Below are positions 2,092 through 26,822 of a DNA stretch of 31,365 nt, piece by piece. The DNA lies in contig CAYJVY010000003.1 of the NCBI GenBank assembly GCA_964373795.1, positions 100,898 through 132,262 of the forward strand. Reading direction: 5' to 3'. Under the pieces are notes generated by a model that was not told where the DNA came from, did no database searches, and saw nothing but the letters and a program-made list of their open reading frames with translations. This stretch comes from an uncultured archaeon (GTDB lineage: Archaea > Iainarchaeota > Iainarchaeia > Iainarchaeales > DATDZZ01). A program made the position numbers and the translations under genes. The first letter of the stretch is position 1. Every line of letters begins with the position of its first letter.

Positions 2092-2965
2092 AATAATTGT
2101 TTTAGGAGCAGGGGCTCTTGGATCGTTTTACGGAGCAATGCTTTCAAGCAAAAACAATGTTTTACTAGTTGGAAGAAAAGAACACATAAAAAAAATTAAT
2201 CAAAAAGGATTAGAGTTAACTGGTTCACTTAGCATGTCTATTAAAGTTAGAGCAACTGAAAGAATTGTAAAAATTAATCCTTCAACTCTAATAATTTTGA
2301 CAACTAAAGTAATTGATTCAGAAAAAGCAGTTCAATCAATTTCCCATCTTTTATTGCCTGACACAGTAATACTTGTATTGCAAAATGGATTGAATTCAGA
2401 GGAAATAGTGAAAAAAATTGTTTCATGTGAAGTAATTAGGGGAATTTCAATGACTGGAATAGCTTTTTTAAGGCCTGGAACAATAGCTGTAAGTCAAGTG
2501 CACAGCATTTTAATTAATGAATCTTCTTCAAGCAATGAAATTGAAAAATTATTTAAAAAATCTGATTTAAAATGTGAAATAGTTTCAGACTTTAAACAAA
2601 AAGAATGGGAAAAATTAATTGTAAACTGCATGTTAAACCCTTTAGGAGCATTAATGGAGGTAAAAAACAAATCAATTGTAAATAATTTGCCTTTAACAAC
2701 TAAATTAATTTTCAATGAATGCAAGAATGTAGCGGAAAAAGAAGGAATTAAATTAGGTGAAGATTTTTTTCAAAAAACAGTTGAAGGCTTAAAGGATTCA
2801 AAGAATTTTAGTTCAATGTTTCAAGACATTATTAAAGGAAGGAAAACAGAAATAGATTTTTTAAATGCAGAAATTGTTAAAACAGGAGAAAAGCATGGCA
2901 TTCCAACTCCGATTAATAAAATGCTTGTAGAATTAATTAAATTTAAAGAACAAAATGAAGGGTGA
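2078..2965 (+). CDS. panE: 2-dehydropantoate 2-reductase (ketopantoate reductase)
   Basis: Rossmann N-terminus IIVLGAGALGSFYG. ApbA/PanE C-terminal pattern SSMFQDIIKGRKTEIDFLNAEIV...GIPTPINKML. ATG 2078 is preceded by GGAGG and overlaps coaBC by 14 nt. Confidence 0.85.
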   Translation: MQFNEIIVLGAGALGSFYGAMLSSKNNVLLVGRKEHIKKINQKGLELTGSLSMSIKVRATERIVKINPSTLIILTTKVIDSEKAVQSISHLLLPDTVILVLQNGLNSEEIVKKIVSCEVIRGISMTGIAFLRPGTIAVSQVHSILINESSSSNEIEKLFKKSDLKCEIVSDFKQKEWEKLIVNCMLNPLGALMEVKNKSIVNNLPLTTKLIFNECKNVAEKEGIKLGEDFFQKTVEGLKDSKNFSSMFQDIIKGRKTEIDFLNAEIVKTGEKHGIPTPINKMLVELIKFKEQNEG

Positions 2966-3785
2966 AAAAATGGTTTATGGAGAAATAAAAGAAATTCATA
3001 AAACAAACTCCTCAGAAAAATTTTCTCTATTGAATGAAAAATTCAAATCAGGGAAAAAGATTGTAATGCTTACAGCATATGATTATCCTATTGCAAAAAT
3101 TTTGGATGAAACAGGAATTGATTTAATCTTAGTTGGAGACTCTGTTGCAATGGCTGTTTTAGGATTGAAGGACACTAAAAGCATGGGCATGCAAGAAATG
3201 TTGCATCATGCAAAAGCTGTTTGCAGAGCAGTGAAAAATGCAATAGTAGTAGGAGATATGCCAATTAATACTTACAATAATTCAAAAGACGCTCTTGAAA
3301 ATGCAAAAAAATTTATTGAAGCAGGATGCGATGCAGTGAAATTAGAAGGCTGTAAAACAGATGAAGTAAAAACACTACTCAAAAATGGAATTCCTGTAAT
3401 GGGGCATTTAGGTTTATTGCCTCAAACAGCTGAAAAATATGCAGTGCAAGGAAAAACTTTAGAAGAAGCTGAAAAAATTTTACAAGAATCAATTTCATTA
3501 AATCAGTTGGGAATTTTTTCACTTGTATTAGAATGCGTGCCAATTGATTTAGCGAAAAAAATTACTGAAAGCATTTCTTGTCCAACAATTGGAATTGGAG
3601 CGGGCATTCATTGCTCTGGACAAGTACTAGTAATAACTGATGTTCTTGGATTAAATAAAGATTTTAATCCAAAATTTGTAAAAAAATATTTGAATTTACA
3701 TGAAGAAATTTCAAAAGCAGTAACAGAATTCAAATCAGATGTTGAAAAACAAAAATTTCCAGCCAAAGAGAATTCTTTTAAATAA
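2955..3785 (+). CDS. panB: 3-methyl-2-oxobutanoate hydroxymethyltransferase
   Basis: MLTAYDYPIAKILDETGIDLILVGDSVAMAVLG matches the PanB core. An alternative start is ATG 2970, just after a GGGTGA. Confidence 0.9.
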   Translation: MKGEKMVYGEIKEIHKTNSSEKFSLLNEKFKSGKKIVMLTAYDYPIAKILDETGIDLILVGDSVAMAVLGLKDTKSMGMQEMLHHAKAVCRAVKNAIVVGDMPINTYNNSKDALENAKKFIEAGCDAVKLEGCKTDEVKTLLKNGIPVMGHLGLLPQTAEKYAVQGKTLEEAEKILQESISLNQLGIFSLVLECVPIDLAKKITESISCPTIGIGAGIHCSGQVLVITDVLGLNKDFNPKFVKKYLNLHEEISKAVTEFKSDVEKQKFPAKENSFK

Positions 3786-3804: not shown

Positions 3805-4305
3805 ATGTCTAGAAGAATTTCCTCTGCAACTAGAAAACTTCAAAGAAAGCAAAGACAACAAAGACTTGAAAAAGGAAGATTTCATCCAAATAATTTATTT
3901 AGCTCAAATTTTTTAAAGATTTTAAGAAAACTTTCCCCAGATCAAAGACTTGTTGCAAATAATTTAAGAAACTCTAATGAAGTGGAAAGAATTAAGGCTT
4001 TAAGACAATTAATTTCTTGGACTTCCGAAAGAGAAGTGCTTCCGGTAATTAAAGCATTATTTAGAGATCCTTCTCCAAAAGTCAGAGCAGATGTATTATT
4101 CAGATTATTTCATTTAGACAAAACTGGAAGCATTCCATTATTTAAAAAAGCTTTAAGGGATTCCTCTCCAAGTGTAAGATTAAATGCAGTTCACTGCTTG
4201 TCTTGGCTTAGAGATTCAAGGTTTCATGTATTTATTCGAGAAAAATTAGACGACCCAGATAAAAATGTAAGAGAAGCAGTTCGCCATGCATTGACTTACA
4301 CTTAG
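3805..4305 (+). CDS. HEAT (PBS-lyase-type) repeat protein with an Arg/Lys-rich N-terminal tail
   Basis: Three repeats of the D-P/S-S-P-x-V-R type (DPSPKVRADV, DSSPSVRLNAV, DPDKNVREAV). N-terminus is MSRRISSATRKLQRKQRQQRLEKGR. Confidence 0.6.
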   Translation: MSRRISSATRKLQRKQRQQRLEKGRFHPNNLFSSNFLKILRKLSPDQRLVANNLRNSNEVERIKALRQLISWTSEREVLPVIKALFRDPSPKVRADVLFRLFHLDKTGSIPLFKKALRDSSPSVRLNAVHCLSWLRDSRFHVFIREKLDDPDKNVREAVRHALTYT

Positions 4306-4371: not shown

Positions 4372-5875
<1,504 letters not shown>

Positions 5876-5879
5876 TTAA

Positions 5880-7271
5880 ATGGAATTCAATTTATTTGAC
5901 GCAATTTCTCCAATAGATTTCAGGTATTTTGGAGGAGATGAAAAATTAAAAAAACAAGCAGAAAAATTCTTAACAGAAACAGCAATGAAAAAATACATGG
6001 CAAAAGTTGAAGCAATTCTAGTAAAAAAATTAGCTGAAGAAAAAGTCATTGAAAAAGAAATAGCTGAAGAAATTGAAAAAGCTTGCAATAATTTGTCTCT
6101 TCAAAAAATATTTGAAGAAGACAAAAAAACAATGCATGAAAGAAGAGCTTTAGTGAACGCAATTCGAGACAAGGTTTCAATAAAAGCAAAACCATTTGTG
6201 CATTTCACTTTAACAAGCAATGACGTATTAGATACAGCTAATGCTTTAAGGTACAAAGAATTTACAGAACAAGTTTTAATGCCTTCATTAATTGAATTAG
6301 AAAAAACTTTAATCAAACTAGCATTGCAAGAAAAAAATACTATTCAAATAGGTAGAACTCACGGTCAACATGCTTTGCCAATAACTTTTGGAAGCTATTT
6401 AAGCAGTTTTGTTTCCCGCTTAGGGAACAGAATTAAAAAAATTAATCAAGCAAGCACTGAATTGCGAGGAAAAATTTCCGGGGCAGTTGGAAACTATAAT
6501 GCGTTAAATTTGTTTGTAGAAAACCCAATTCAATTTGAAAAAGAATTATTGCAAGAACTAGGCTTGCAGCAAGCTCAAACCTCTAGTCAAATAGTTGAAG
6601 AAGAATTTTTATTGGATTACTTGCATGCATTAACTTCTACTCTTGGAGTAATTGCAAACTTGGCAGATGATTTAAGGCATTTGCAAAGAACAGAAATCGC
6701 AGAATTAAATGAAAAATTTGAAGAAAAACAAGTAGGCAGTTCAACAATGCCTCATAAAAGAAATCCTTTAACTTTTGAAAACTTGAAAGGAATTTGGAAA
6801 GAATTTGTTCCAAGAATGACTACTGCTTACTTTGATCAAATCTCTGAACATCAAAGAGATTTAACTAATTCCACAACTAAAAGATTTGTGCCTGAAACAA
6901 TTTTCATAACATTTTATGCAAGTGAAACTTTAAGGCAGGCATTGGAAAAAATTGAATTAAACAAATCTCAAATGAAAAAAAATTTTCAATTAAATAAAAA
7001 CATAATACTTTCAGAAGCACTGCAATTACTTTTATCATTTCATGGATTTGAAAATGCTCATCAAACAATTTCAGAACTAACAAATCAAGCAGTTAAAGAA
7101 AACAAATCCTTAACTGAATTAGTGCAACAAAAACCTGAACTAAAAAAATATTTAAATAAATTTACTGTTGAACAAAAACAAGTCTTAGAAAACCCTGAAA
7201 CATATTTAGGCAAAGCAGTTGAAAAAACCGAAACAGTTTGCGAGTTTTGGAAAAAGGAATTGGGATTGTAA
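5880..7271 (+). CDS. purB: Adenylosuccinate lyase
   Basis: Fumarate-lyase signature GSSTMPHKRNP, HFTLTSNDV, N-terminal SPIDFRY. GAGG lies 10 nt upstream of the ATG. Confidence 0.92.
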   Translation: MEFNLFDAISPIDFRYFGGDEKLKKQAEKFLTETAMKKYMAKVEAILVKKLAEEKVIEKEIAEEIEKACNNLSLQKIFEEDKKTMHERRALVNAIRDKVSIKAKPFVHFTLTSNDVLDTANALRYKEFTEQVLMPSLIELEKTLIKLALQEKNTIQIGRTHGQHALPITFGSYLSSFVSRLGNRIKKINQASTELRGKISGAVGNYNALNLFVENPIQFEKELLQELGLQQAQTSSQIVEEEFLLDYLHALTSTLGVIANLADDLRHLQRTEIAELNEKFEEKQVGSSTMPHKRNPLTFENLKGIWKEFVPRMTTAYFDQISEHQRDLTNSTTKRFVPETIFITFYASETLRQALEKIELNKSQMKKNFQLNKNIILSEALQLLLSFHGFENAHQTISELTNQAVKENKSLTELVQQKPELKKYLNKFTVEQKQVLENPETYLGKAVEKTETVCEFWKKELGL

Positions 7272-8251
7272 TGCGTGCACAGAGAAGAACTCCTAAAAAG
7301 CAAAGAATTCTGGAATTTGTGATTCAAACACAGCCTTTGTTTCTCAAACCTGGAGAAAAGTTCTCTGCCGATAAAACCCCTGTATTGAAAAAAAACATCA
7401 GACATGCAGAAACCAGAGGTATGCATATAGAGTATGTGGGGGTTGATCCAAAAAATTCTCCACCTGGAAGCACGCAAAAATTTGAAACAGGTGGAAGAGT
7501 AATAGAAAAATATGCAATAGGAAGACTTGGATTGCAGCTAAATTTAAGGCCTAATTCTGTTGACGAAATTCATCTGCACATGATTGACACTCACGTGGAA
7601 GATTTGGAAGAAACATGCAAACAACTTGTACTAGCACTAAAATCCGAAGGAAAAATTTTTATTACAGGTGACAAAGGAAGAAAAAGCACAAAATACTGTC
7701 CTTTTGGTTTAAATCTTCCGCAAGCTCTCGAAATTCTTTCAAAGCATTTCAGAATAACCCAGTTCTTTACATTTCCTGAAGGAAAAACAGGCAGTAGAAT
7801 TCCAATAAAAACTCCTCAAAGTGTAAAGATTTTGGACACAGGAAAAGGAATTATTGAAGGAACTTCGAGCCCTTTGCAAGAATGGGAACTGACAAGTGTT
7901 AGTGCAAGGCACAAATTCCTGAAAAGGTTCACAAACTACTATGACATGGCACACTACTTTCTGGTTTTAGAACCACGAGGTCAAGAACCAAGAACTGTCA
8001 AAGGAAGAATCCTTAACCCGGCTTTGCTGAAACCAGGAACAAAACAAATGAATCGAAAAAGTATTGGAATAATCTGGCCTAAATCAGGACATGGCGACAG
8101 GCAACCAAAATATGGCGGAGATGGAAAAGGAGAATACCAACAATTTAGAATAAGGAGAACTGCATTAAGCAAAGAAGAGAAAAGAAAAATAATTGAACGT
8201 GAAGAAAAACAAAGAAAAGAAGAGGAAAATAATTCATACAGAAGCAATTAA
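7271..8251 (+). CDS. Hypothetical protein (326 aa) with a basic N-terminal tail and a charged KE-rich C-terminus
   Basis: Its ATG shares one base with the purB stop (TAATG). N-terminus is MRAQRRTPKKQRILE. I recognise no family. The track ORF start at 7238 lies inside purB. Confidence 0.55.
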   Translation: MRAQRRTPKKQRILEFVIQTQPLFLKPGEKFSADKTPVLKKNIRHAETRGMHIEYVGVDPKNSPPGSTQKFETGGRVIEKYAIGRLGLQLNLRPNSVDEIHLHMIDTHVEDLEETCKQLVLALKSEGKIFITGDKGRKSTKYCPFGLNLPQALEILSKHFRITQFFTFPEGKTGSRIPIKTPQSVKILDTGKGIIEGTSSPLQEWELTSVSARHKFLKRFTNYYDMAHYFLVLEPRGQEPRTVKGRILNPALLKPGTKQMNRKSIGIIWPKSGHGDRQPKYGGDGKGEYQQFRIRRTALSKEEKRKIIEREEKQRKEEENNSYRSN

Positions 8252-8265
8252 AGAAAGGAATCCGC

Positions 8266-9114
8266 ATGCAATTAATAAGATATATTAAAGCAATGCAAGA
8301 ATTCTCTGAATGTCAAAGAAAAATTAATAGCAAAATAGGTTTTGTGCCTACAATGGGTTTCTTGCATGAAGGACATTTAAGTTTAATTTCTCGCGCAAAA
8401 AAAGAAACTGATTTAGTTATTGTAAGCATTTTTGTTAATCCAACTCAATTTTCTCCTAAAGAAGATTTCAAATCCTATCCAAGGAATTTGAAAACAGATT
8501 TAGAGTTATGTGAAAAAGCCGGAGCAGACATAGTTTTTGCTCCAAATGAAAAAGAAATATATGAAAACCATTTAACTTGGATTGAAGTAAAAGACTTAAG
8601 TGAAGGCTTGGATGGAATTTCAAGGCCAACTCATTTCAGAGGAGTTGCAACAATTGTTGCAAAATTATTCAATATAGTTAAACCTCATAAAGCTTTTTTT
8701 GGTTTAAAAGATTTACAACAAGTAATTGTAATAGAGAAAATGGTTAAAGACTTGAATTTTGATTTAGAAATAGTTAGATGTGAAACAATTAGAGAAAAAG
8801 ACGGCTTGGCAATGAGTTCAAGAAATACTTATTTGAATTCAGAGGAAAGAAGTCAAGCAACAGTACTATTTGAAGCATTGCAATTAGCAAAAAAATTAAT
8901 TTTTAAAGGAGAAAAAAATGCTGAAAAGATTAAGAAAGAATTACAGAGAAAAATTTCTTTAAAACCTTTAGCAAAAATTGATTTCATTGAAATAGTTTCC
9001 TTAAAAGATTTAAAGTCAGTGAAAAAAATAGAAAACAATTTTGCAGTTTTATTGGCTGTCGTTTTTGGCAAAACAAGATTAATTGATAACATGGTTTTTG
9101 AAAAGGTGAATTAA
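8266..9114 (+). CDS. panC: Pantoate-beta-alanine ligase (pantothenate synthetase)
   Basis: HIGH motif region PTMGFLHEGHLSLI. 282 aa. Also FGLKDLQQ and MSSRN. Confidence 0.93.
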   Translation: MQLIRYIKAMQEFSECQRKINSKIGFVPTMGFLHEGHLSLISRAKKETDLVIVSIFVNPTQFSPKEDFKSYPRNLKTDLELCEKAGADIVFAPNEKEIYENHLTWIEVKDLSEGLDGISRPTHFRGVATIVAKLFNIVKPHKAFFGLKDLQQVIVIEKMVKDLNFDLEIVRCETIREKDGLAMSSRNTYLNSEERSQATVLFEALQLAKKLIFKGEKNAEKIKKELQRKISLKPLAKIDFIEIVSLKDLKSVKKIENNFAVLLAVVFGKTRLIDNMVFEKVN

Positions 9115-9921
9115 TTGCAAAAAAATTTGGTTTTGGGAGCAGATTTGGGAAACTCTTCAATTGATTTAGTGTTAATGAATGAAAGAAAAATTGTTTCTTC
9201 AAAGTCTTTTCCAGTTCAAGAAAACTCTTTTACTGAAAAGAATTTGCTTAAAATGTTTAAAAAATTTCCTTTAAATAAAGTTAAAACAATTAATGCAACT
9301 GGGTCTAATTCAAGGTTTTTAAAAGAAAAGTTTTTAGGATTAAAAGTGATAAAAGTGAATGAAATTCAAGCAATTGCCTTTGGCGCAAAATTTGTTTCAA
9401 ATTCAAAAAATTTTTTAACAGTTTCAATGGGAAGTGGAACAGCCTTAGTTTCAGTTAAAGGAAAAAAATTCTCTCACATAGGAGGAACAGCTGTTGGAGG
9501 AAAAACATTAGAAAACCTTGCAAAACTATTAATTCAAACACCTAATGTAAAAGAATTAGAAAACCTTGCATTAAAAGGAGATTTGAAAAGAGTTGATTTA
9601 ACTTTGCAAGAAATTTATCCAAAAGGAATTGGTTTATTGCCAAAAGAAGCAACTGCCTCTCATTTTGGAAAGTTAAGGAATCCAAGAAAACAAGACAAGG
9701 CATTAGCATTAATTAATTTAATTGCACAAGTAATTGGATCAATAGCTGTTTTTGCTGCTCTAGCTTACAAGCATAAAGAAATTGTTTTCACTGGAAAACT
9801 AATTTCCTTGAATTTACTTAAAAAGGTTTTATTTAAAAGAATTTTCTGGCTAAATAAATCTAGGTTTAAAGTACCAAAAAATGCTGGAATTGCTACTGCA
9901 ATTGGAGCGTGTATTTCATGA
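9115..9921 (+). CDS. coaW: Type II pantothenate kinase (Staphylococcus CoaW-like)
   Basis: The ASKHA-fold motifs LGADLGNSSIDLV, SMGSGTALVSV...IGGTAVGGKTLENLAKLL, GDLKRVDLTLQEIY and NAGIATAIGA parallel S. aureus CoaW as I recall it. TTG start lies directly after the panC stop and is preceded by AGGTGA. Confidence 0.8.
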   Translation: MQKNLVLGADLGNSSIDLVLMNERKIVSSKSFPVQENSFTEKNLLKMFKKFPLNKVKTINATGSNSRFLKEKFLGLKVIKVNEIQAIAFGAKFVSNSKNFLTVSMGSGTALVSVKGKKFSHIGGTAVGGKTLENLAKLLIQTPNVKELENLALKGDLKRVDLTLQEIYPKGIGLLPKEATASHFGKLRNPRKQDKALALINLIAQVIGSIAVFAALAYKHKEIVFTGKLISLNLLKKVLFKRIFWLNKSRFKVPKNAGIATAIGACIS

Positions 9922-10265
9922 ATGAAATTAAGTTAACTCCAAAAATAGTTGAAAAGCCTTGGGGAAGAGAGCAATGGTTAGTAGTAACAGAAAAATATGT
10001 TTTAAAAATTTTAGAAATAAAAAAAGGGCATAGATTTTCCTTGCAATACCATGAAATAAAAGACGAAGCATGGCTTGTAATAAAAGGAAAATTATTAGCT
10101 GTTTACGGTGAAGAAAAATTAACTTTAATTCCAGGAGACATTGTAAGAGTTCCTCCTAAAACAATTCATAGATTAAAGGCTTTAGAAGATGCAGAAATAA
10201 TAGAGGTCTCAACTCCAGAATTAGAAGACGTAGTTAGATTAGAAGATGATTATAGTAGAAAATAA
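9918..10265 (+). CDS. Cupin-domain protein (type II phosphomannose-isomerase-like cupin)
   Basis: KPWGREQW...GHRFSLQYHEIKDEAWLVIKG...IHRL...IIEVSTPELEDVVRLEDDYSR. ATG 9918 overlaps the coaW stop (ATGA). Confidence 0.7.
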   Translation: MNEIKLTPKIVEKPWGREQWLVVTEKYVLKILEIKKGHRFSLQYHEIKDEAWLVIKGKLLAVYGEEKLTLIPGDIVRVPPKTIHRLKALEDAEIIEVSTPELEDVVRLEDDYSRK

Positions 10266-10267
10266 TT

Positions 10268-11272
10268 TCAAGCAACTGGCGTAAGAGATTCATCTTCATC
10301 TCTTGGAGGGCGTCTTTCCAAAAAAGTTTTTCTAAGAACTTCTTTGTCAACAAAATGATATTTTCCCTTTAATTGAGCTAATGAAGCAGTTAAACGATCC
10401 ATTCTATATTTATATTCTCTTAAATGTTCTTGCTCGGCTGTTTCCAGTTTAAGTAATGGAACAACTCCATCTGCAGCTCTATTTAATTCATCATGAAATC
10501 CTTTATATCTTTCAATTAATTCCGCGCACCTGCTCCAGTCCTCTCTACTAGAATGAGCTTTATAAGCTTCATTAAATTCCTTGAATTTGACGACTTCTAA
10601 TTCTCCTACTTCGAAAGCTTTCTTCAAAAAACTCCATGTTTTTCTTCTTTCAGAAAGTTCTTCAGGACTTAATTTCACGCCATATTTATATATATTTCCA
10701 GTTAAAAGTGCTCCAAAGCTTGGAGCTCTAGCATGACTTAATACTAATTTAACCAATCTATCAAGAATTGGAGTAAGATAAGGAATTTGAAAATCAGCAT
10801 GCTTTCTAGCTTTTCCTTCCTCAATTTCTCTTTCTAAAATATATAATTGAACTTTAATGCTTTTCAATACATGTTCGTTTACTGTGGGTTTTGGAATTTC
10901 TCTAATTACATCGTTTAAAATTCTTTTCATTCTTTCCTCGTCTCTTTCAGTGCTTCTAATATGTTCTTCTCTTTCAGTTCCCCTAGATTCAGTTGCAGCT
11001 CTTCTTTCACTAGCAATATCTTTAAGTAATTCAATTAATTCTGGGGGAATAGAAAAAGTTGGATGAATATGAATATGTTCTTCATGAGTTCTTTCAGCAG
11101 AGCCTTCAGTTTCAGCTCTTCTAGCAGGAGAAACTTCTCCTTCTCTTTCAACTAAAACCTTTCCTGGATGAACTACAAACCTGGTGTCATGTCTTTCATG
11201 AATTTCTTGTTCATGAATGTGAGTTGCTCTACTTCCAGTTCGTTCAACAATTCTTCTTCTATTTTGACGCAT
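10268..11272 (-). CDS. ORFan A (334 aa): Arg/His-rich N-terminal module repeated internally, helical C-terminal body
   Basis: First ATG gives MRQNRRRIVERTGSRATHIHEQEIHERHDTRFVVHP. The N-terminus is paralogous to the next gene. No recognised domain. Confidence 0.6.
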   Translation of the reverse strand: MRQNRRRIVERTGSRATHIHEQEIHERHDTRFVVHPGKVLVEREGEVSPARRAETEGSAERTHEEHIHIHPTFSIPPELIELLKDIASERRAATESRGTEREEHIRSTERDEERMKRILNDVIREIPKPTVNEHVLKSIKVQLYILEREIEEGKARKHADFQIPYLTPILDRLVKLVLSHARAPSFGALLTGNIYKYGVKLSPEELSERRKTWSFLKKAFEVGELEVVKFKEFNEAYKAHSSREDWSRCAELIERYKGFHDELNRAADGVVPLLKLETAEQEHLREYKYRMDRLTASLAQLKGKYHFVDKEVLRKTFLERRPPRDEDESLTPVA

Positions 11273-11324
11273 TAAACTCACACAGATAAGTAAAAGCAAC
11301 TGAAAAAATAGTTAACAAAAGAAA

Positions 11325-11816
11325 TTATGGTTTCTTTTGACCTGTTTTCATTCTTCCTTTTAAAGGCTTTGAAGGTTCAAATAATCCTGGAACTCCTTCT
11401 GCTCTAAGGAAATTCATTATTTCACTGTTAAGAGGTAGAACTCTAGATCCTTTTGCTTTGTCAATAACAAATACTTGAGGCACTGTTTTTTGTACAAATC
11501 TTCCCTCTGCATCTCTAACAGGTTCTCCTTTAGCATCTTTCTCTGTAGCCTTAACTTCTGCAAGTGCAAATCTATATCTCTCAGGATTGTCAGCAAAAGA
11601 AGGATAATTTTCAGATAATCTATCAATTAGTTTTTCTCTTTGTCCAACTAAGAGTTCTTGTGCTCTTGTTCTTGGTCCAATAACCCATTCAGTTGGTGCC
11701 TTTGCAGTAGGTCCTACAACAAATCTTACGCCATGTCTTTCTTCCACCTCAGTTTCTCTAGCATGAACACCTCTGTCCCTTGTAACTTCTCTCACTCTTC
11801 TTCTAGCACCTGGCAT
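11325..11816 (-). CDS. ORFan B (163 aa) with the same N-terminal module
   Basis: MPGARRRVREVTRDRGVHARETEVEERHGVRFVVGP. GAGGTGA lies 8 nt upstream of the ATG, with a TATA (CATTTAAATAT on the minus strand) further upstream. Confidence 0.65.
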   Translation of the reverse strand: MPGARRRVREVTRDRGVHARETEVEERHGVRFVVGPTAKAPTEWVIGPRTRAQELLVGQREKLIDRLSENYPSFADNPERYRFALAEVKATEKDAKGEPVRDAEGRFVQKTVPQVFVIDKAKGSRVLPLNSEIMNFLRAEGVPGLFEPSKPLKGRMKTGQKKP

Positions 11817-11918
11817 TCTTTTTTCACCTCATCTAGTTAATAAATTAAAATATACTTATTTTGTGTATTTTATTATATTTAAATGTATCTGTTAACATAT
11901 GATTAAAAGTATTGGCTT

Positions 11919-12314
11919 TTAAAGGTTAAGACCTTCTTCTTTTTCTTCTCCTAATTGTTTTTTCTTTAAAGCCTTATATCTTGTAATTGCAGCTTCATCC
12001 GGAACATATCTTGCTTTTCTTTGTCCTTCATCTTGGTGTCTATTAATAACTTTGTGTGGCTCTTCATCCAAGTCTATGCAATAAACATTTCCGTCAGGGC
12101 CAATCCAAAGCTCTTCTCCTAATAGTTTACCAAATACTGGGTCATCAGATTTTTTTCCTATTCCTGCAAAATTATATCTTTTTCCTTCTCCATCAACAAA
12201 AGATTCAGTGAATTTTGCTTTATGCTGAACATGTCTTACTTCAGGCATATGATGAATTTCATCTAATGGCCTTGAAGTTGATTTAACTATTGGACGTCTT
12301 GGCCTTTCAGGCAT
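11919..12314 (-). CDS. ORFan C (131 aa) with a weaker version of the N-terminal module
   Basis: MPERPRRPIVKSTSRPLDEIHHMPEVRHVQH. AAGGAGG SD lies 7 nt upstream. Shares the motif GPDGNVYCIDLDEEPH with ORFan D. Confidence 0.6.
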   Translation of the reverse strand: MPERPRRPIVKSTSRPLDEIHHMPEVRHVQHKAKFTESFVDGEGKRYNFAGIGKKSDDPVFGKLLGEELWIGPDGNVYCIDLDEEPHKVINRHQDEGQRKARYVPDEAAITRYKALKKKQLGEEKEEGLNL

Positions 12315-12386
12315 TTTTTTCCTCCTTAATATTAAATTCTAATGTTATTATCCTATTTAAATATTTTCATTTCAGATTTCAATTTT

Positions 12387-12989
12387 TTAATCCCTTATTT
12401 CAGGCAAATTCATGTCATATTCGCCTCTTTTAATCATTTCCTCTGTTGCATCAAAATATTTGTTTTTCCCATGAGGTGAAACCATTAAATTGCCTTCAAC
12501 ATCAATTCCAACGTCAATTGTTTTTCCAGATCCAATGGTAACACTTTTTAAGAAAAAAATCTTTGTCTCTCCTTCAGCTAGCTGTAAAACTGTTTTTTTA
12601 GCTTTATGTTGTGCATTTCCTTCTAGTATAAGAATTTCTTCTTTATCTGGATGCCTAAAAATTCCAAAATTCCCAAAATTTTTACTCCTAACATATGCCA
12701 CTAAAAAATGTCCTTCCTCAAGAGTTGGTCTAGGATGTCTTCTTCCCTCTGCATCAATTAAACACACATCATGTGTTCTTCTATCTCTATAAACCCCAAA
12801 TTCATCGTCTAAAATAAGCAATCTATCTGATTTATGTCCATGCCTGTCTACTTGAGTTCTTCTCCAGTCAACTGGATGTCTTTCTAACTCAAATGACGGG
12901 CGATGTTCAACAGTTGTTTTGGTTGAAAAAATATTTTTAATCCAGTGCCATGTCCTAAGAAGTCTATTGGGGTGCACTGGTTCTCGCAT
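12387..12989 (-). CDS. ORFan D (200 aa), beta-rich body
   Basis: ATG 12989 lies 11 nt after GGTGA; the track start 13004 is GTG. Contains ELERHPVDWRR and THDVCLIDAEGRRHP. Confidence 0.55.
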   Translation of the reverse strand: MREPVHPNRLLRTWHWIKNIFSTKTTVEHRPSFELERHPVDWRRTQVDRHGHKSDRLLILDDEFGVYRDRRTHDVCLIDAEGRRHPRPTLEEGHFLVAYVRSKNFGNFGIFRHPDKEEILILEGNAQHKAKKTVLQLAEGETKIFFLKSVTIGSGKTIDVGIDVEGNLMVSPHGKNKYFDATEEMIKRGEYDMNLPEIRD

Positions 12990-13080
12990 AGGCAATTTGT
13001 TCACCTGAAAAAATGAATTTAATATATAATTTACTGGTTTAAGAATATAAAAGACTTTTGTATAAAGAAAAAGTTTGGAT

Positions 13081-13131
13081 GGGAGTTAAAAGTGCAAGGG
13101 AAGACTCAGAAGGATTTTGCACTTAACTCCC
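13081..13131. other. Isolated stable hairpin (7-bp + 8-bp stems, 2-nt bulge, 19-nt loop) in a 295-bp intergenic region
   Basis: GGGAGTT-AA-AAGTGCAA ... TTGCACTT-AACTCCC. It is locally GC-richer than its surroundings and is not adjacent to a stop codon. Confidence 0.5.
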
Positions 13132-13299
13132 AAAGATTTCTGATGCTCTGCCCTCGAATAATATTATTACCGTATTTGAAAGAATATAATTTTCAACTCT
13201 AAAATGCACTTAAAACAGTAAATTTTGTTTGTGCAAACAATTAATTCCAGAACACATTTTTTCTAGAAGAAAAAGAGTTTTTCCGCCAGAGAAACCTAT

Positions 13300-14955
13300 T
13301 TATTCAAGCAATTTTTTTAAAAATTCTAGAATTGCTTCAATTAAAACTTGTAAAAAACCTTTTTTTTTAGATTCTTCTTTTGGCTTGACTTCTTTTTCTG
13401 TGTTTTCATCTACAGCTAATTTGTTTGAATCAGTTTTGGAATTGTTGTTTTGACCTAGTAATTTGTTTTCATCTTTTGGTTTAATTATTTTTTTATTTAA
13501 ATCAGCATTTACATCTAAAGGTTTTTGTTTGTTTAAATCAATTTTAATCTCTTTATTTTCGTCTTTTGGTAGTTCCTTATTTACATCAATTTTTACTCCT
13601 TTATTTTCATCTACTGATTTTTCTTCTATAAAGCGAATACTTGAAGGAATTAATGGATGCAAATAATTTGCTTCTTTCAAGCAGTGAGAAAACAATTCTT
13701 TATTTGAATTATAGCATGGCCTCAAATCTGTTTGCATTAAATTTAATACTAATTGAGTTGAATCTTTAACTGATTCAATTTTTTCTTTTTGCATTGAAAG
13801 CTTGTAAAAAATTTCTTGCAATGAATCAAAGCCATGTTTTTTTACATAGTTTCTAATCACTAATTCACTGAATGCATATCCAAATGAAAGATTTTTGTCT
13901 TCATTGTAGTTCCAGGTTTCCATAAACTTTTCATTATTTTTATAATAATTCCATAACTCTTCTTCGCTTGCACCTGATTTAAAAGTAGTTATTTGATTTC
14001 CTTCAGTAAAGCTTTTGTCTTCTCCAAATAAATTTGGATATATTCTTTCTTTGTTTACGTCTACAACTAATTCAAGGTATCTGGCAACTCCTTCATTAAA
14101 CCAAAGCAAGGAATTTTCATCAGACCATTTTAATACTTGTTCATTAAAGCCATGAGTTGCTTCATGTAAAAGAGTTGTATTAATTTGATTTGGTTGAAGT
14201 TCTTCATTAAAAGTTGACTCTCTTAAAAATATTAATCCGTTTAAGTAAACTCCTTGACTGAATGAAAGAGTTTCTTTATTATAATCTGCATCGCTTAAAA
14301 CAACTATTGGGTAAAAAGGAAAAGGTTTTTTTCTTCCAGTAACTCTTTCAATTACGTAAAACAATTCATCTTCTTTGCTTAAATCAAATGAATCATTGCC
14401 AAACACTACAAAGTTTTTGTAAGGCGTTTTCTTGTCACTGAAATACAGTCTAATTGCTGGAGGACCAATTCCTTCAAATACAGCTTTTTCTTTAGTTATA
14501 TTCTCAGTGAATCCAAAAGAACTAGAAAAAGATAAAATGTTTGGAATATTTGCATTAACCTTTGAAGGAGTTTTAGGAAACCCTGCAAGAGATAATTCAA
14601 TTAATTTTAGTTCAGGAAATTTTTCTTTAACAGCATTTCTTTCAATTAAATCTAATCTAAATGTTTCTTTTCTTCTTCCAGTTCCAATATTTGATTGAAA
14701 CTCTATTTGACTTCCGTTTCTATTAAAGTCATTTATTTTTCCAATTGAATCACTTATTGAAACAATTTCAGAGTTTTCTGGAACAATAAAAGTTATACTC
14801 CAATAATTCACTGCTTCATTTGATTCAACGTCAAAAAAATTAACTATATTTAAATCACTATTTCCAAGCAATGAAACTTCGTATTCAACTACTGCACTTG
14901 CATTTAATGAAATGAATAATAAAATTATTGCAATTAAAGTTGTTTTGAAAAACAT
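13300..14955 (-). CDS. Secreted gluzincin (M1-like HExxH...E) metalloprotease with a Lys-rich repetitive C-terminal tail
   Basis: Signal peptide MFFKTTLIAIILLFISLNASA. HEATHGF followed by WFNEGVARY (compare M1 HExxH-x18-WLNEGFA). Tail has KIDVNKELPKDENKE / KIDLNKQKPLDVNADLNKKIIKPKDENK repeats. Confidence 0.7.
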   Translation of the reverse strand: MFFKTTLIAIILLFISLNASAVVEYEVSLLGNSDLNIVNFFDVESNEAVNYWSITFIVPENSEIVSISDSIGKINDFNRNGSQIEFQSNIGTGRRKETFRLDLIERNAVKEKFPELKLIELSLAGFPKTPSKVNANIPNILSFSSSFGFTENITKEKAVFEGIGPPAIRLYFSDKKTPYKNFVVFGNDSFDLSKEDELFYVIERVTGRKKPFPFYPIVVLSDADYNKETLSFSQGVYLNGLIFLRESTFNEELQPNQINTTLLHEATHGFNEQVLKWSDENSLLWFNEGVARYLELVVDVNKERIYPNLFGEDKSFTEGNQITTFKSGASEEELWNYYKNNEKFMETWNYNEDKNLSFGYAFSELVIRNYVKKHGFDSLQEIFYKLSMQKEKIESVKDSTQLVLNLMQTDLRPCYNSNKELFSHCLKEANYLHPLIPSSIRFIEEKSVDENKGVKIDVNKELPKDENKEIKIDLNKQKPLDVNADLNKKIIKPKDENKLLGQNNNSKTDSNKLAVDENTEKEVKPKEESKKKGFLQVLIEAILEFLKKLLE

Positions 14956-15047
14956 TATAGAATTAATTGCTTTAACCTTTATTAAGTTAAAGGTTTTCAA
15001 AGGCTGAAGCGAAGATTTTTATTTCTTGGATTTCATTAATTTCTTAT

Positions 15048-15788
15048 ATGAGGGAAAAAACAACTAGAAAAATTCAAAGAACTCCTGAAAAAAGAAGGGA
15101 AACAACTAAAAGAGTTAAAACCTTTTTTCGATCAGATATTTTTAGAGCATCTCAAGCATATGTTCAAGGAAGAATTTCTGGAGTGAATAGAACTAATTTT
15201 CGAAGCCTTGTTTCAGAAGAGGTTAGAAGCAAATTAAACAGTTTACTTGAAGAAGGAATTAGTGGAAGAGAACTTGAAAAAAGATTGCAAGACATTAAAT
15301 TCGAACACGGAGAAAAAGCTGCAAAAGCAGAATTATATTTAAATCATAAAAAAGAAGAAGAATTGCTTGACTTTCAATGGAAGTTGCTTGAAAGATTAAT
15401 TGGTTTAAGAAAGTCTTTGCAAAGACTTTTTAATGGTTTAAATCCTTCTAAAAAAAAATTTGTTGAACTTGTATTAGATTCTTGGAGTAAATTAGATGAA
15501 GAATGGAGAGAAAAAGTTGACGAATTAGTTAGATTGAGAAGACTTGGAGGTGCAACGGTTTTACAAGAATTCACTAGAAGCCCTGATTTTAGAAAAAAAG
15601 AAGAAGACTTTACTAGAAAAGTTCAAAAATTTGATGCAAAAATTAAAAGGCTTTTAGAAAGAAACACTATTCCAGTAATAGATGAATTTCTTCATTTTTT
15701 ATTGCAAGAAAAAATGTTGAAAAAACAATACTATGGAAACAAAACAAGAATTACTTGGCTTTTAGCTGAAAGAAGCAAATTAGAGTAA
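15048..15788 (+). CDS. Hypothetical helical protein (246 aa) with a basic N-terminal tail
   Basis: MREKTTRKIQRTPEKRRETTKRVK. T-rich TATA about 35 nt upstream. No recognised domain. Confidence 0.5.
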   Translation: MREKTTRKIQRTPEKRRETTKRVKTFFRSDIFRASQAYVQGRISGVNRTNFRSLVSEEVRSKLNSLLEEGISGRELEKRLQDIKFEHGEKAAKAELYLNHKKEEELLDFQWKLLERLIGLRKSLQRLFNGLNPSKKKFVELVLDSWSKLDEEWREKVDELVRLRRLGGATVLQEFTRSPDFRKKEEDFTRKVQKFDAKIKRLLERNTIPVIDEFLHFLLQEKMLKKQYYGNKTRITWLLAERSKLE

Positions 15789-15797
15789 AGTGATTAA

Positions 15798-16199
15798 ATG
15801 AAGCCAAAAGAACCATTTCATGGAAAACTAGGAAAAAGAATTATAGTTCTTCAAAGTGAAGTAGTTTTACATGAAGTTGCTTCAAATCAAAGAAAAATGA
15901 TTGAAGGAACTGATGAAAGAGTTAGAAAACAGTTCAAAACTTTAGTGAATAATTTAGAGAAACTTAAAACCCAAGGAGAAGAAGGTTTTACGCTTGCAAA
16001 AACTTTAGTAGAGTTAACTACCTTAAAGCAAGGATTTCCTGAAGGAAAATTTAATCCAAGATTAGCTAACGCGGAATCAGTTCAAGAATTAATTGATTTA
16101 GTTGAAGAAATGATTCAACACAGGATTAGATTAAGTAGAAGACAATTAGAATTAGCTTTTGAAGAAGAAAAAAGAAAAATTTTGGGCACGCAAAAATAA
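15798..16199 (+). CDS. Hypothetical helical protein (133 aa)
   Basis: Begins 9 nt after the previous gene. Composition resembles a coiled coil. Confidence 0.45.
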   Translation: MKPKEPFHGKLGKRIIVLQSEVVLHEVASNQRKMIEGTDERVRKQFKTLVNNLEKLKTQGEEGFTLAKTLVELTTLKQGFPEGKFNPRLANAESVQELIDLVEEMIQHRIRLSRRQLELAFEEEKRKILGTQK

Positions 16200-16208
16200 T
16201 TCAAGTAA

Positions 16209-16367
16209 CTATTTACTTAAAAAATTAATTAATGCTGTCAACTCTTGAGGAGAAAGATTTGCTTGCTTGGAGAAAAGAATTACTCCTTCTTGACCTATTT
16301 CTGTATTCAATGGAATTGCAACTCTTTTCTGAAGTTTTTCCCTAGACCTTCTTTGAAGACGCCTCAT
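16209..16367 (-). CDS. Small basic protein (52 aa), possibly a ribbon-helix-helix DNA-binding protein; absent from the ORF track
   Basis: My translation: MRRLQRRSREKLQKRVAIPLNTEIGQEGVILFSKQANLSPQELTALINFLSK. GGAGTGA lies 4-7 nt upstream of the ATG. The strand-helix-helix pattern is inferred by eye. Confidence 0.45.
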   Translation of the reverse strand: MRRLQRRSREKLQKRVAIPLNTEIGQEGVILFSKQANLSPQELTALINFLSK

Positions 16368-16510: not shown

Positions 16511-16654
16511 TTATTGTTTTTTTGATCTATAACAGTCTAAGCAATAAACTGGGCGTCCTTCTTTTGGTTGGAAAGGAACTTTTGTTTCTTTTCCGCACTC
16601 AGAGCAAACAGCATCGTACATTTGTCTGCTTCCTCTGTCGTTTCTAAAAGCCAT
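16511..16654 (-). CDS. 47-aa CxxC-x17-CxxC zinc-ribbon protein (below the track size cutoff)
   Basis: My translation: MAFRNDRGSRQMYDAVCSECGKETKVPFQPKEGRPVYCLDCYRSKKQ. AGGTGA lies 8 nt upstream of the ATG. A paralog lies at 28219-28365. Confidence 0.8.
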   Translation of the reverse strand: MAFRNDRGSRQMYDAVCSECGKETKVPFQPKEGRPVYCLDCYRSKKQ

Positions 16655-16882: not shown

Positions 16883-17869
16883 ATGCATGCAAGAACTCCT
16901 TTAAAGACTCCTAGAAGTTGGGTTAAAAAAATCAGAAAACTTGAAAGACTTTTACCAGATGAAGCAAAAAAAGAAGCAATTGTTGAATTGCCTTCAGGGC
17001 AAAGAGTTTCACTAGTTGAAGCAAGAGAAAGATTAGTTGAAAGAGATGCTTGGCTTGGAATAAAATCAATGCAAATGAAAGCAAGACTAGAAAAACAATT
17101 GCAGGAATTTCAATTATTGCAAGAAGCAAACGATTTAGCAAGATCTGGATTAGGAGTTCAAGAAATTGCTAGAAGATTGGGAGTTTCAAGAACTGCTGTA
17201 ACTAATTGGTTGGAGAGAGAAATTCTTCCAAGATCTCTTTCAGAAAGAAGATTTGAGGGTTTTAAGAGAAGAAGAAAACAAGTAAATATTACTCCAGATA
17301 AACATGCTGATCTTTCCTATATTTTTGGAATTCTTTTTGGAGAACATTTAAGAAGAAAACCTGAAGGAAAAGAAGGGTCAAGAGGGTTAGGATTCTTTTT
17401 CAGCATTAAAGATCAAAGTCTAGGAGAAGAAATTAAAAAAAGACTTGAAAGAGTTACTGGAAGCAAAACATTAAATTATAGAGTAAATAATTTTAATGTA
17501 CATGGATTTATTGCTAGAAATTTTACTCAACTAGTTAATAGAGAAACAAGTTATTTGTCAAAGCTTCCAAAAAGATTTCTTTCTTCAAGACGAGAAAGAT
17601 TATTATTTTTACGAGGATTATTTGATTCAAATGGACAAGTAAAAAGAATGAAAGTTGGAGTAAAAGCAGTAACTCTTACTATTCAAAACCCTGAATTATT
17701 GGAATTTACTTTAAGTAATTTAAATAGGTTTCAAATTCCTCACACAATTGAAACTGAAAAAATTCATGGAAAAACAGTTCAATTAATTGTTATTTGGCCA
17801 AAAGACTTTAACAGATTTAAACAATTAATTGGTTTTAGAGGTAAATCAAAGCAAGACTTATTAGGTTAA
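16883..17869 (+). CDS. Free-standing HTH + double-motif LAGLIDADG-domain protein
   Basis: HTH segment GLGVQEIARRLGVSRTAVTNWLER. Two LAGLIDADG-like motifs, YIFGILFGEH and LFLRGLFDSNGQV. It is not embedded in an intron or intein. Confidence 0.65.
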   Translation: MHARTPLKTPRSWVKKIRKLERLLPDEAKKEAIVELPSGQRVSLVEARERLVERDAWLGIKSMQMKARLEKQLQEFQLLQEANDLARSGLGVQEIARRLGVSRTAVTNWLEREILPRSLSERRFEGFKRRRKQVNITPDKHADLSYIFGILFGEHLRRKPEGKEGSRGLGFFFSIKDQSLGEEIKKRLERVTGSKTLNYRVNNFNVHGFIARNFTQLVNRETSYLSKLPKRFLSSRRERLLFLRGLFDSNGQVKRMKVGVKAVTLTIQNPELLEFTLSNLNRFQIPHTIETEKIHGKTVQLIVIWPKDFNRFKQLIGFRGKSKQDLLG

Positions 17870-17926: not shown

Positions 17927-18514
17927 ATGCTTTCAAGAAGAAGAGCAATCAAGGCAAAACAAGCATTGCCTAGAATGCCTTATCAATTTGAATTTGATTT
18001 TATGGGGTTAAAAGCAGTGCAAGGACTCAGAGTAAAAAATTCTGTAAGGATTTATTCATTAGGCAATAGATTTGTAGGAGAATTTAAAAGAAAAAATCAT
18101 TTAAAAATGAATAAAAGATTTAATTTTAGGGTAAGCTTTTTTGAAATTGATGTAAAAAGAATGAAAAAAGTTCCTAAAAAAATGATTGCAACTGGGCAAA
18201 TAATTGAAGTTTCAAACAATTTTCCAAGTGATTGGAAAAGATTTCCTGGATTTAAAGGACTTCAAGAATTGATTGAAAGTAGAAGAGCTGCAGAAATATT
18301 TGTTGGATTAGAAAAAAATTATCAAAGTCTTGAATGGCAAAGAAAAGGTTTTGGAGAAAAAATTAGTCAAACCTTGATTGAAGAAGCAAGAAAACAAGGA
18401 ATTCAAGTAATAATTGCAATAGTAAGACAAAATAACTTCAAAGTAAGAGCTGGATTAAAAAAACAAGGATTTAAACAATTTAGGAAATCAGTTTTTTGGG
18501 TAAAAGAAATTTAG
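17927..18514 (+). CDS. GNAT-family N-acetyltransferase-like protein with a basic N-terminal tail
   Basis: Motif A-like WQRKGFGEKISQTLIEEARKQG followed by a beta-strand/helix pattern. N-terminus is MLSRRRAIKAKQALPR. Confidence 0.5.
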   Translation: MLSRRRAIKAKQALPRMPYQFEFDFMGLKAVQGLRVKNSVRIYSLGNRFVGEFKRKNHLKMNKRFNFRVSFFEIDVKRMKKVPKKMIATGQIIEVSNNFPSDWKRFPGFKGLQELIESRRAAEIFVGLEKNYQSLEWQRKGFGEKISQTLIEEARKQGIQVIIAIVRQNNFKVRAGLKKQGFKQFRKSVFWVKEI

Positions 18515-18599: not shown

Positions 18600-19268
18600 A
18601 TGCCTGCTTATGGAAGAAAGCCTGCAAGTGGAAAAACAAGAAGAGTTATAAGTAGATTACGCCCTGAAGGAAAAGCAACTAGAATGATTAGATCAGATGA
18701 AGGAAGAAGAGGAAAAAGAGTTTTAATTGAAAAGCCTTGGGGAAATGTAACCTCAACTCTTGACGATGTATGCAAGGCTTTAAGGACTGATTTAAGAGAA
18801 AGAGTTAGATTTCATTTAAATAGAAAACCTAATCCAGTAATAGTTAACTGGGGTTGTGGAAAAGGTTTTTCAATAACTAAACTTCAAGAAAAATTTCCAA
18901 GTACAGAATGCTATGGATTTGCAGATGAATATTTTCATGAATGGGAACAACAAGACAAAGTGTTGTTTCTTCAAGGAGTTGCAGGGAATTTTTTTAGATA
19001 CATGAAGTTAACAGTTAAAAAGCCAATTGATTTACTGTATTCCTCTGATGGATTAAGACATCTTTCTCTTTCAAGAAATGAAACAAAAAAATATTTAGAG
19101 AAATTAGGAAACTTTTTATCAGTTGAAGGGGAAATGATTTTCAATATACAATTTCCAAAGCAATGGCCTTTAAAAGAACTAGATCCAACAAAGTTTAGAG
19201 TTAGATCAATGAGAACAAAACCAGGATATACTGAAATGCATGTAGTGAGAATTGTAAGATTGCAATAA
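18600..19268 (+). CDS. Class I SAM-dependent methyltransferase-like protein with a basic N-terminal tail
   Basis: Motif I-like VIVNWGCGKGFS, an acidic post-I residue (YGFADE), and DLLYSSDGLRHL. N-terminus is MPAYGRKPASGKTRRVISRLRPEGK. Confidence 0.45.
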   Translation: MPAYGRKPASGKTRRVISRLRPEGKATRMIRSDEGRRGKRVLIEKPWGNVTSTLDDVCKALRTDLRERVRFHLNRKPNPVIVNWGCGKGFSITKLQEKFPSTECYGFADEYFHEWEQQDKVLFLQGVAGNFFRYMKLTVKKPIDLLYSSDGLRHLSLSRNETKKYLEKLGNFLSVEGEMIFNIQFPKQWPLKELDPTKFRVRSMRTKPGYTEMHVVRIVRLQ

Positions 19269-19316: not shown

Positions 19317-19685
19317 ATGGGTCATGTATTAGGATATAGAAATCTTAGGGCAAAAAACAAAGTGAAAACAAGAAGAAAACCTGTTACAAGAACTTTTTCA
19401 AAAGCAACAGCTGCTTCTTTGAAAGGCATTCAAAGACAATTAGATCCAGGAATATTAAGACAAGTTAAATCCGCTCCTAGAATGATAGGAGACTATATTA
19501 ACTCTGTTCAAGGAGAAAAAGATGGAGTAAAATATAATGCAAGAATTCACTTTTTACCCGGTAGAAAAGGAAAAGCAATTGTTGCAACATTTTATGGCGA
19601 TAGAAGACTTCCAAGAACATTTTATTATGATTTAAAAGGAAGACTAATTGCAGTAGAGATTAGAGGAAAAACACTAGTAATCTGA
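19317..19685 (+). CDS. Hypothetical small beta-rich protein (122 aa) with a basic N-terminal tail
   Basis: MGHVLGYRNLRAKNKVKTRRKPVTRTF. No recognised domain. Confidence 0.45.
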   Translation: MGHVLGYRNLRAKNKVKTRRKPVTRTFSKATAASLKGIQRQLDPGILRQVKSAPRMIGDYINSVQGEKDGVKYNARIHFLPGRKGKAIVATFYGDRRLPRTFYYDLKGRLIAVEIRGKTLVI

Positions 19686-26417: not shown

Positions 26418-26822
26418 ATGCGAGAACCAAGAATTGAAAGACGTGTTAGGCCAGAAGAACGAAGACCTTCAGTTGGAGTAGGGGAAATTTTTAGGCCAGG
26501 GAAAAGACTCGATCAAGTAATTTTCAATTCAGCTTCTCAAGGCCCTGTTGAAATAACAATTAGAAAGGGAAACAGGAAAAGAAAACTTGTTGAAATAATT
26601 TCTTTAACTCATGGAAGTGCAAGAGTGCATCAATTGCTTGCAGAACTGCTTTTTAATGATCGTGGCCAAATAGTAAATGCAAATGTTTTATCTCAAAGAA
26701 TGCAAAGACACCTTCGAGAACACAAACCTAAAGAATCTTGGCTTACGGAACGAGAAATAATTGATTTATTTAAAGAAGCTCTTTACAGGAAAGAAGAATT
26801 TAAAAAAATGCGAAGAAAATAA
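26418..26822 (+). CDS. Hypothetical protein (134 aa) with a basic N-terminal tail
   Basis: MREPRIERRVRPEERRPSVGVGE. A-rich TATA about 30 nt upstream. Confidence 0.45.
   Translation: MREPRIERRVRPEERRPSVGVGEIFRPGKRLDQVIFNSASQGPVEITIRKGNRKRKLVEIISLTHGSARVHQLLAELLFNDRGQIVNANVLSQRMQRHLREHKPKESWLTEREIIDLFKEALYRKEEFKKMRRK

Follow-up and report, generated by a model that had tools for sequence, protein, structure and literature searches.

Arginine-rich motifs, or basic arms, are found in RNA- and DNA-binding proteins such as lambda N and HIV Tat and Rev and, as N-terminal arms, in the capsid proteins of small viruses. In small-genome archaea, orphan genes that have tandem paralogues are abundant. 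The locus described here, a cluster of four consecutive minus-strand genes designated A to D, was compared with both. It lies at positions 10268 to 12989 of a 31,365-nt stretch (about 31 kb, 35 proteins) of contig CAYJVY010000003.1, called the window, and all statements about the neighborhood apply to that window. The four members of the cluster are genuine orphan genes that are confined to one lineage and lie on a chromosome of low guanine-plus-cytosine (GC) content (about 31%).

The N termini of A and B resemble arginine-rich motifs in being short, dominated by Arg (6 to 7 of 25 residues), unstructured according to low-confidence models, and attached to unrelated bodies. They differ in that the arms of A and B are polyampholytes, with 3 to 5 acidic residues among the same 25, and run into an E-R-H..R-F-V-V-x-P stretch. 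There is no sequence homology to the known motifs, and the likeness extends no further than composition and position; in function, the closest analogy is the arginine-rich arm of nucleic-acid-binding proteins. With taxonomically restricted orphans the locus has in common its restriction to one lineage, short and charged products, disordered segments, tandem duplication, and native codon use. The sole distinction is that the paralogues A and B have kept the head while the body was exchanged or lost.

Four orphan genes and the module shared by A and B

The four open reading frames (ORFs) were reproduced at the positions and lengths of the initial annotation, each as an ORF with a coding frame: A (334 aa) at 10268 to 11272, B (163 aa, isoelectric point [pI] 10.1) at 11325 to 11816, C (131 aa) at 11919 to 12314, and D (200 aa) at 12387 to 12989. 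Their transcription order is D, C, B, A. At 0.078 stops per codon, ORFs as long as these would arise by chance in the window in expected numbers of 8e-9 (A), 0.008 (B), 0.11 (C), and 4e-4 (D). Under a codon model whose training set was 18 further window genes (housekeeping enzymes and other Lys-rich ORFs), the log-likelihood of A to D was positive in the annotated frame only, at 0.33 to 0.60 bit per codon compared to 0.46 for PanC. GC content at third codon positions (GC3) was 0.14 to 0.21 against a background of 0.19, and AGA was the dominant Arg codon, as in the host. On the strength of ORF length, codon fit in the annotated frame, and native GC3 and Arg codons, A to D are genuine genes.

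The match of third-position GC and Arg codon choice to the host also indicates that the four genes have long been resident there. The slightly raised GC of the cluster region arises at codon positions 1 and 2; it stems from amino-acid composition and is therefore not evidence for recent transfer. Recent horizontal transfer was ruled out by GC3 and codon use. Near-identical DNA of the locus (0 to 1 mismatch) was assembled in four other sequencing runs, so the locus is no assembly artefact; these copies are of the same strain and carry no comparative information. The exact 200-aa product of D is recorded in a public protein collection, and a one-residue variant of C was found in another sequencing run.

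Scans of Pfam, PHROGs, NCBIfam, and PADLOC with A to D and with the head-less bodies yielded noise only (a V_ATPase_I coiled-coil and a sub-threshold Cupin_7), in agreement with the earlier statement that no domain is recognisable in the four ORFs. When A, B, and D served as queries in a word-indexed search of 5.8 billion clusters, each retrieved itself alone. Further carriers of the module were sought exhaustively with HMMER among 1.84 billion representatives; a profile of A plus the head of B retrieved A and B alone, the match of B being partly circular because its head was part of the profile. No PDB sequence matched A to D below E=0.1, tblastn gave no match to phage records (B, C, and D) or plasmid records (C), and scanning IMG/VR viral contigs with A and C gave none. 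The claim that the four are ORFans thus held, with no homologue beyond the near-identical same-strain copies, and neither the module nor the bodies matched a well-characterised family in the searches run. The orphan status is, as far as sequence comparison reaches, strongly supported.

Relatives were sought through neighboring genes as well. A search of genome contigs with PanK for syntenic relatives found none, and the genome-contig search with PurA gave a single match, 44% identical, from Phycisphaeraceae. In a metagenome search with a PurA alignment, the nearest relative was 59% identical and located on a contig designated L006 (41% GC), which carries an archaeal/eukaryal-type TyrRS. Apart from PurA, this contig has no gene in common with the window, and it does not extend to the relevant side.

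The shared module occupies residues 1 to 36 of both proteins. The copy in A is MRQNRRRIVERTGSRATHIHEQEIHERHDTRFVVHP (11165 to 11272, minus strand), with weaker similarity to B continuing to about residue 80 (11033 to 11272), and the copy in B is MPGARRRVREVTRDRGVHARETEVEERHGVRFVVGP (11709 to 11816, minus strand). In a gap-free alignment, the two N termini agree at 18 of 36 residues, as had been noticed initially. Beyond confirming this count, BLASTP aligned A and B at E=4e-8, weakly as far as about residue 80, and their Smith-Waterman score was 105 compared to 35.9 ± 5.3 for shuffled sequences (Gumbel p=3e-8, 300 shuffles). A profile hidden Markov model (HMM) of residues 1 to 36 of A and B scored the two proteins at 79 and 75 bits. 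The module positions are R5-R7, E10, T12, R15, H18, E21, E23, E26-R27-H28, R31-F-V-V, and P36.

At the DNA level, the two copies share 54% nucleotide identity, with nonsynonymous divergence (dN) of 0.57 and synonymous divergence (dS) of about 1.9 (dN/dS about 0.3). These values point to an ancient duplication and to selection acting on the peptide; judged from the alignment, A and B arose by tandem duplication long ago, and the module diverged under purifying selection. The shared segment is rich in Arg, Glu, and His and predicted to be unstructured. In B, it precedes a body of about 125 aa without any match, and in A it is followed by a charged low-complexity stretch of Glu, Arg, His, and Thr that reaches about residue 125 and then by an all-helical body. 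The bodies differ, A having a helical domain some 200 aa long and B another body of about 125 aa. The initial annotation had described a conserved leader on variable bodies in all four proteins, which holds for A and B and fails for C and D.

No relation of C or D to A/B, or to one another, was detectable, and the proposed four-gene family was not upheld. With the module HMM, C scored -2.7 bits and D -1.8 bits, both lower than the unrelated enzymes PanC and CoaBC, and every BLASTP and shuffle test with C or D was non-significant. The second motif said to be common to C and D fared no better, the best C-D comparison reaching p=0.059 before correction for multiple tests. The N terminus of C is Arg/Pro-rich (MPERPRRPIVK). 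Since 13 of the 35 window proteins have an Arg-rich N terminus, what had been read in C and D as weaker versions of the module is probably the generic arm. C and D are separate orphans outside the A/B module family.

One short stretch is common to B and D. The 15-nt sequence GATGCAGAGGGAAGA, in frame and encoding DAEGR, occurs in B at 11499 to 11513 and in an identical copy in D at 12741 to 12755 (both minus strand), and an 80% identical copy encoding DGEGK occurs in C at 12180 to 12194. Codon shuffling gave p=0.001 for the B/D pair and p=0.029 for a match in any pair among the six, values that hint either at a short motif in common or at a small tract of conversion. Nothing beyond their adjacency joins the four genes into the undescribed system proposed at the outset. 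The lineage is under-sampled, and the cluster is of the ordinary orphan kind, not a demonstrated system.

Structure prediction combined with structural search, suggested earlier as a check on each body, was carried out for A and D with single-sequence AlphaFold2 models of low confidence. In the model of A (predicted local distance difference test score [pLDDT] 42), residues 1 to 76 are without structure and nine helices span residues 77 to 318. In that of D (pLDDT 48.6, predicted template-modelling score 0.45), residues 1 to 40, which are Arg/His/Trp-rich, are unstructured, and about 9 beta strands lie in residues 64 to 171. Foldseek searches of PDB and BFVD with the two models found no match at E <=0.001; the best match of the D model had E=0.09 and a template-modelling score of <=0.27.

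Arginine-rich arms and their possible function

The 35 window proteins fall into two compositional classes, 22 of them Lys-rich and 13 Arg-rich. The Lys-rich class has R/(R+K) of <=0.31 and at most 2 Arg (<=2) in the first 25 residues; it consists chiefly of enzymes, membrane proteins, and secreted proteins, and Arg is not enriched at their N termini. The Arg-rich class has R/(R+K) of 0.40 to 0.66, and 12 of its 13 members carry 3 to 7 Arg in the first 25 residues, where Arg makes up 19.4% compared to 9.5% elsewhere (p=5e-8; p=1e-5 without A to D). GC3 is equal in the two classes. The usual starts of the arms are MRxxRRR, MPxxRRR, and MLSRRR, and no sequence motif is common to all of them except Arg richness. 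Within the first 25 residues, A and B have 6 to 7 Arg, C has 4, and D has 3.

Besides A to D (10268 to 12989), the Arg-rich class includes a HEAT protein (3805 to 4305), an HTH-LAGLIDADG protein (16883 to 17869), a GNAT (17927 to 18514), and ORFs at 7271 to 8251, 15048 to 15788, 15798 to 16199, 18600 to 19268, 19317 to 19685, and 26418 to 26822. One arm-bearing protein gave very weak, sub-threshold methyltransferase matches (E=0.01 to 0.08). The arm-bearing genes are interspersed among housekeeping genes. A 52-aa ORF on the minus strand at 16209 to 16367 starts with MRRLQRRSREK, another Arg arm. On contig L006, small proteins with Lys/Arg-rich N termini (MPPRKRTNTK; MKRSGQPKEV..KKKKKP) are encoded at 6703 to 7137, 8259 to 8570 (minus strand), and 9625 to 9966. 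A literature search on Arg-rich N termini in DPANN archaea found nothing relevant.

The explanation we favor, tentatively and with a probability of roughly 0.4, is that A to D are small soluble proteins associated with nucleic acids. The Arg-rich N termini of C and D would be instances of the generic basic arm carried by about one third of the window proteins, and the arm would act as an electrostatic element for nucleic-acid binding or tethering in the style of arginine-rich motifs. The E-R-H..R-F-V-V-x-P stretch conserved after the arm in A and B may be a short partner-binding motif. On these readings of arm and motif, the products would be soluble and would not form a cargo-targeting, secretion, or toxin system. 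The proposal is favored by nucleic-acid-related or regulatory domains in several arm-bearing proteins (HTH-LAGLIDADG, GNAT), by a pI of 10.3 to 11.5 in the N-terminal 40 residues of A to D, and by the lack of any transmembrane or signal segment in these four.

Several points weigh against nucleic-acid association. The 3 to 5 acidic residues within the first 25 of A and B are unlike classical arginine-rich motifs, and the His enrichment of A, C, and D is unexplained by a nucleic-acid arm. Conservation of the module was seen between the paralogues A and B of one lineage only, and the arm pattern rests on 35 genes of 31 kb, not on the whole genome. The searches of the large protein collections covered A, B, and D.

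Two competing explanations are about equally unlikely. According to the first, the basic N terminus serves as a leader for sorting or translocation, sending the arm-bearing proteins to a compartment, to the cell surface, or to a host cell, with a specialised version in A and B. A similar arm on unrelated bodies, enzymes among them, the concentration of Arg specifically at the N terminus, and the conserved head on divergent bodies in A and B all fit a leader, but the arms lack a common motif besides Arg richness, and the 31-kb window yielded no gene for a shell, for secretion, or for a protease. In A to D, the basic region is not followed by the hydrophobic core of signals of the Sec and twin-arginine (Tat) pathways; the maximum mean Kyte-Doolittle value over 19 residues is 0.44 to 1.07, with no transmembrane or signal segment.

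Two of the analogies offered in the initial annotation, cargo-targeting peptides and polymorphic effectors, belong to this type of explanation, and neither gained support. Encapsulin and microcompartment cargo peptides are likewise short terminal peptides on proteins with differing bodies, but the A/B module is neither the amphipathic helix nor the GSL-type motif of known targeting peptides, is common to two proteins only, and is accompanied by no shell gene in the window. A Pfam search of 33 of the 35 window proteins and two small ORFs found no shell family (encapsulin HK97-fold, BMC-H/BMC-P). As for polymorphic effectors, no trafficking or toxin domain was detected in A to D with Pfam, NCBIfam, and PADLOC, and neither secretion genes nor an immunity gene was found in the window.

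According to the second, which takes up the His-rich metal-binding modules named initially, A to D are His/Glu-rich metal-binding proteins serving as Ni, Zn, or Co buffers or chaperones, with the module as a metal head and a cupin-like site in D. His content is 5.1% in A, 6.0% in D, and, marginally, 4.6% in C, a 3- to 4-fold enrichment over the background of 1.5%, and A contains HxH, HxxxH, and HEEH strings. This enrichment and the HxH beside Glu recall His-rich metal proteins of the Hpn, HypB, UreE, and SlyD type; their His content, however, is far higher than 5 to 6%, His is not conserved between A and B, and no partner metalloenzyme genes lie nearby. Only 2 of the 6 module His of A (H18 and H28) are retained in B, whose overall His content is 1.2%. 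The internal His-rich repeats described in A did not exceed the expectation from shuffled sequence (p=0.2 and 0.065), and their HMM domain scores were negative.

In D, residues 96 to 130, FRHPDKEEILILEG, weakly match Cupin_7 over H-x4-E-x5-G at 15.8 to 16.6 bits (E=0.007 to 0.012), under the 27-bit Pfam cut-off. D resembles the cupin superfamily in its predicted beta-rich body and in this sub-threshold match (E=0.007), and differs from it in the low score, the unmatched structural search, and the low-confidence model. No similarity was found between D and the product of the adjacent cupin gene.

Slightly less probable again is the origin of the cluster as a decayed fragment of a virus or mobile element, with structural or packaging proteins bearing basic arms. 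The complete lack of homologues is typical of archaeal virus genes, strong Shine-Dalgarno (SD) sites are present at B, C, and D and rare elsewhere in the window, and imperfect direct repeats of 17 to 18 nt bracket the cluster (10000 to 10016 with 13315 to 13331, and 10125 to 10142 with 13241 to 13258). The repeats are, however, only mildly commoner than in simulations (6 versus a mean of 1.4 and a simulated maximum of 6) and are probably due to chance. Native GC3 and Arg codons, the scatter of arm-bearing genes among housekeeping genes, and the lack of any integrase, tRNA, or hallmark viral gene in the window or of any phage, plasmid, or viral-contig match argue against a mobile origin. In PHROGs, A to D and their neighbors had no matches save generic HTH and GNAT.

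A broader and rather improbable conjecture takes the Arg arm as an address label used throughout the proteome of a small archaeon, possibly a symbiont. The arm would direct proteins to a partner cell, as a signal for cell penetration or translocation, or it would tag them for the nucleoid or an RNA condensate, and the A/B module would mark a sub-class with its own receptor motif (E-R-H..R-F-V-V-x-P). Equally improbable is that all four genes form one family with a diverged leader and one functional system, for which their adjacency and co-orientation, the D-[AG]-E-G-[RK] motif in B, C, and D with its 15 identical nt in B and D, and the marginal C-D similarity (p=0.059) count for less than module HMM scores of C and D under those of unrelated enzymes, uniformly non-significant pairwise tests, and a promoter-like box of their own at each of D, C, and B.

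Promoter-like signals and neighboring genes

The TATA-like box ATTTAAATA was located at 11876 to 11884, 60 to 68 nt upstream of the start codon of B, and at 12354 to 12362, 40 to 48 nt upstream of that of C (both minus strand), where the initial annotation had reported TATA boxes. Across the window, 17 occurrences of this motif stand against 2.4 expected, a seven-fold enrichment, and each of D, C, and B has a promoter-like box of its own. A mimivirus-type promoter, AAAATTGA, was rejected, with 15 matches versus 15.8 expected.

The SD sites reported before three of the genes were likewise recovered on the minus strand: GAGGTGA before B (11824 to 11830), AGGAGG before C (12321 to 12326), and AGGTGA before D (13001 to 13006), at -8 to -17 from the starts; A has the GTGA core only. 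The SD of D overlaps an alternative GTG at 13004; this and the recorded 200-aa product both favor the ATG at 12989 as the start of D. Strong SD sites in the window are limited to B, C, D, and PanK. Most other window genes are without SD and have an A/T-rich box about 25 to 38 nt before the ATG, a leaderless-type layout.

The cluster is flanked on one side by a convergent cupin gene, the last of the panC/type II panK operon (8266 to 10265), and on the other by the co-oriented gene of a 566-aa HExxH protein (13300 to 15000). The 295-nt spacer between the latter and D contains, on the minus strand at 13080 to 13132, a hairpin of 16 pairs with a 19-nt loop that is followed by a T-run. Its folding energy is -20.3 kcal/mol (z=-2.6), and none of 200 shuffled sequences folded equally well. 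The hairpin and T-run probably separate the transcription units of the HExxH gene and D, so that D probably begins a unit of its own. No Rfam match was found across the window, this hairpin included.

The 566-aa protein, encoded on the minus strand, has a hydrophobic signal-like N terminus, the HExxH sequence HEATH, and a repetitive tail rich in Lys, Asp, and Asn, and may be a secreted metalloprotease; its sole match was a sub-threshold one to flagellinolysin (E=8e-5, 22 bits versus a cut-off of 205). An otherwise empty 680-nt gap is occupied by the 52-aa Arg-arm ORF mentioned above and by a minus-strand gene at 16511 to 16654 for a 47-aa treble-clef zinc-finger protein of CxxC..CxxC type (Pfam zf_Tbcl_2, E=2.8e-21). 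At 37 to 844, a HepT-like RNase lies beside an MNT-type nucleotidyltransferase, likely a toxin-antitoxin pair.

A bacterial-type coenzyme A (CoA) pathway (CoaBC, PanE, PanB, PanC, and type II PanK) and purine genes are encoded at 901 to 3785 and 4550 to 9921, the purine genes including a 420-aa PurA and an ASL_C-type PurB. This suggests that the CoA and purine genes were acquired from bacteria amid an otherwise archaeal-looking genome. An HTH_10 regulator is encoded at 28509 to 29246. The HTH_10 regulator, the TATA-like boxes, the leaderless-type layout, and the link to L006 with its TyrRS indicate that the host is likely an archaeon with many bacterial-type metabolic genes; the bacterial type of the CoA and purine genes counts against this placement.

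Significance of the cluster and of the arm pattern

As a cluster, the four genes are one more orphan set in a poorly sampled lineage, without homologues or partner genes. Within it, A and B provide a clean example of paralogues whose disordered head is under selection while the bodies differ. The more interesting lead is the two-class pattern with its Arg-armed proteins, which would be worth a dedicated study if it proved true genome-wide and in relatives.

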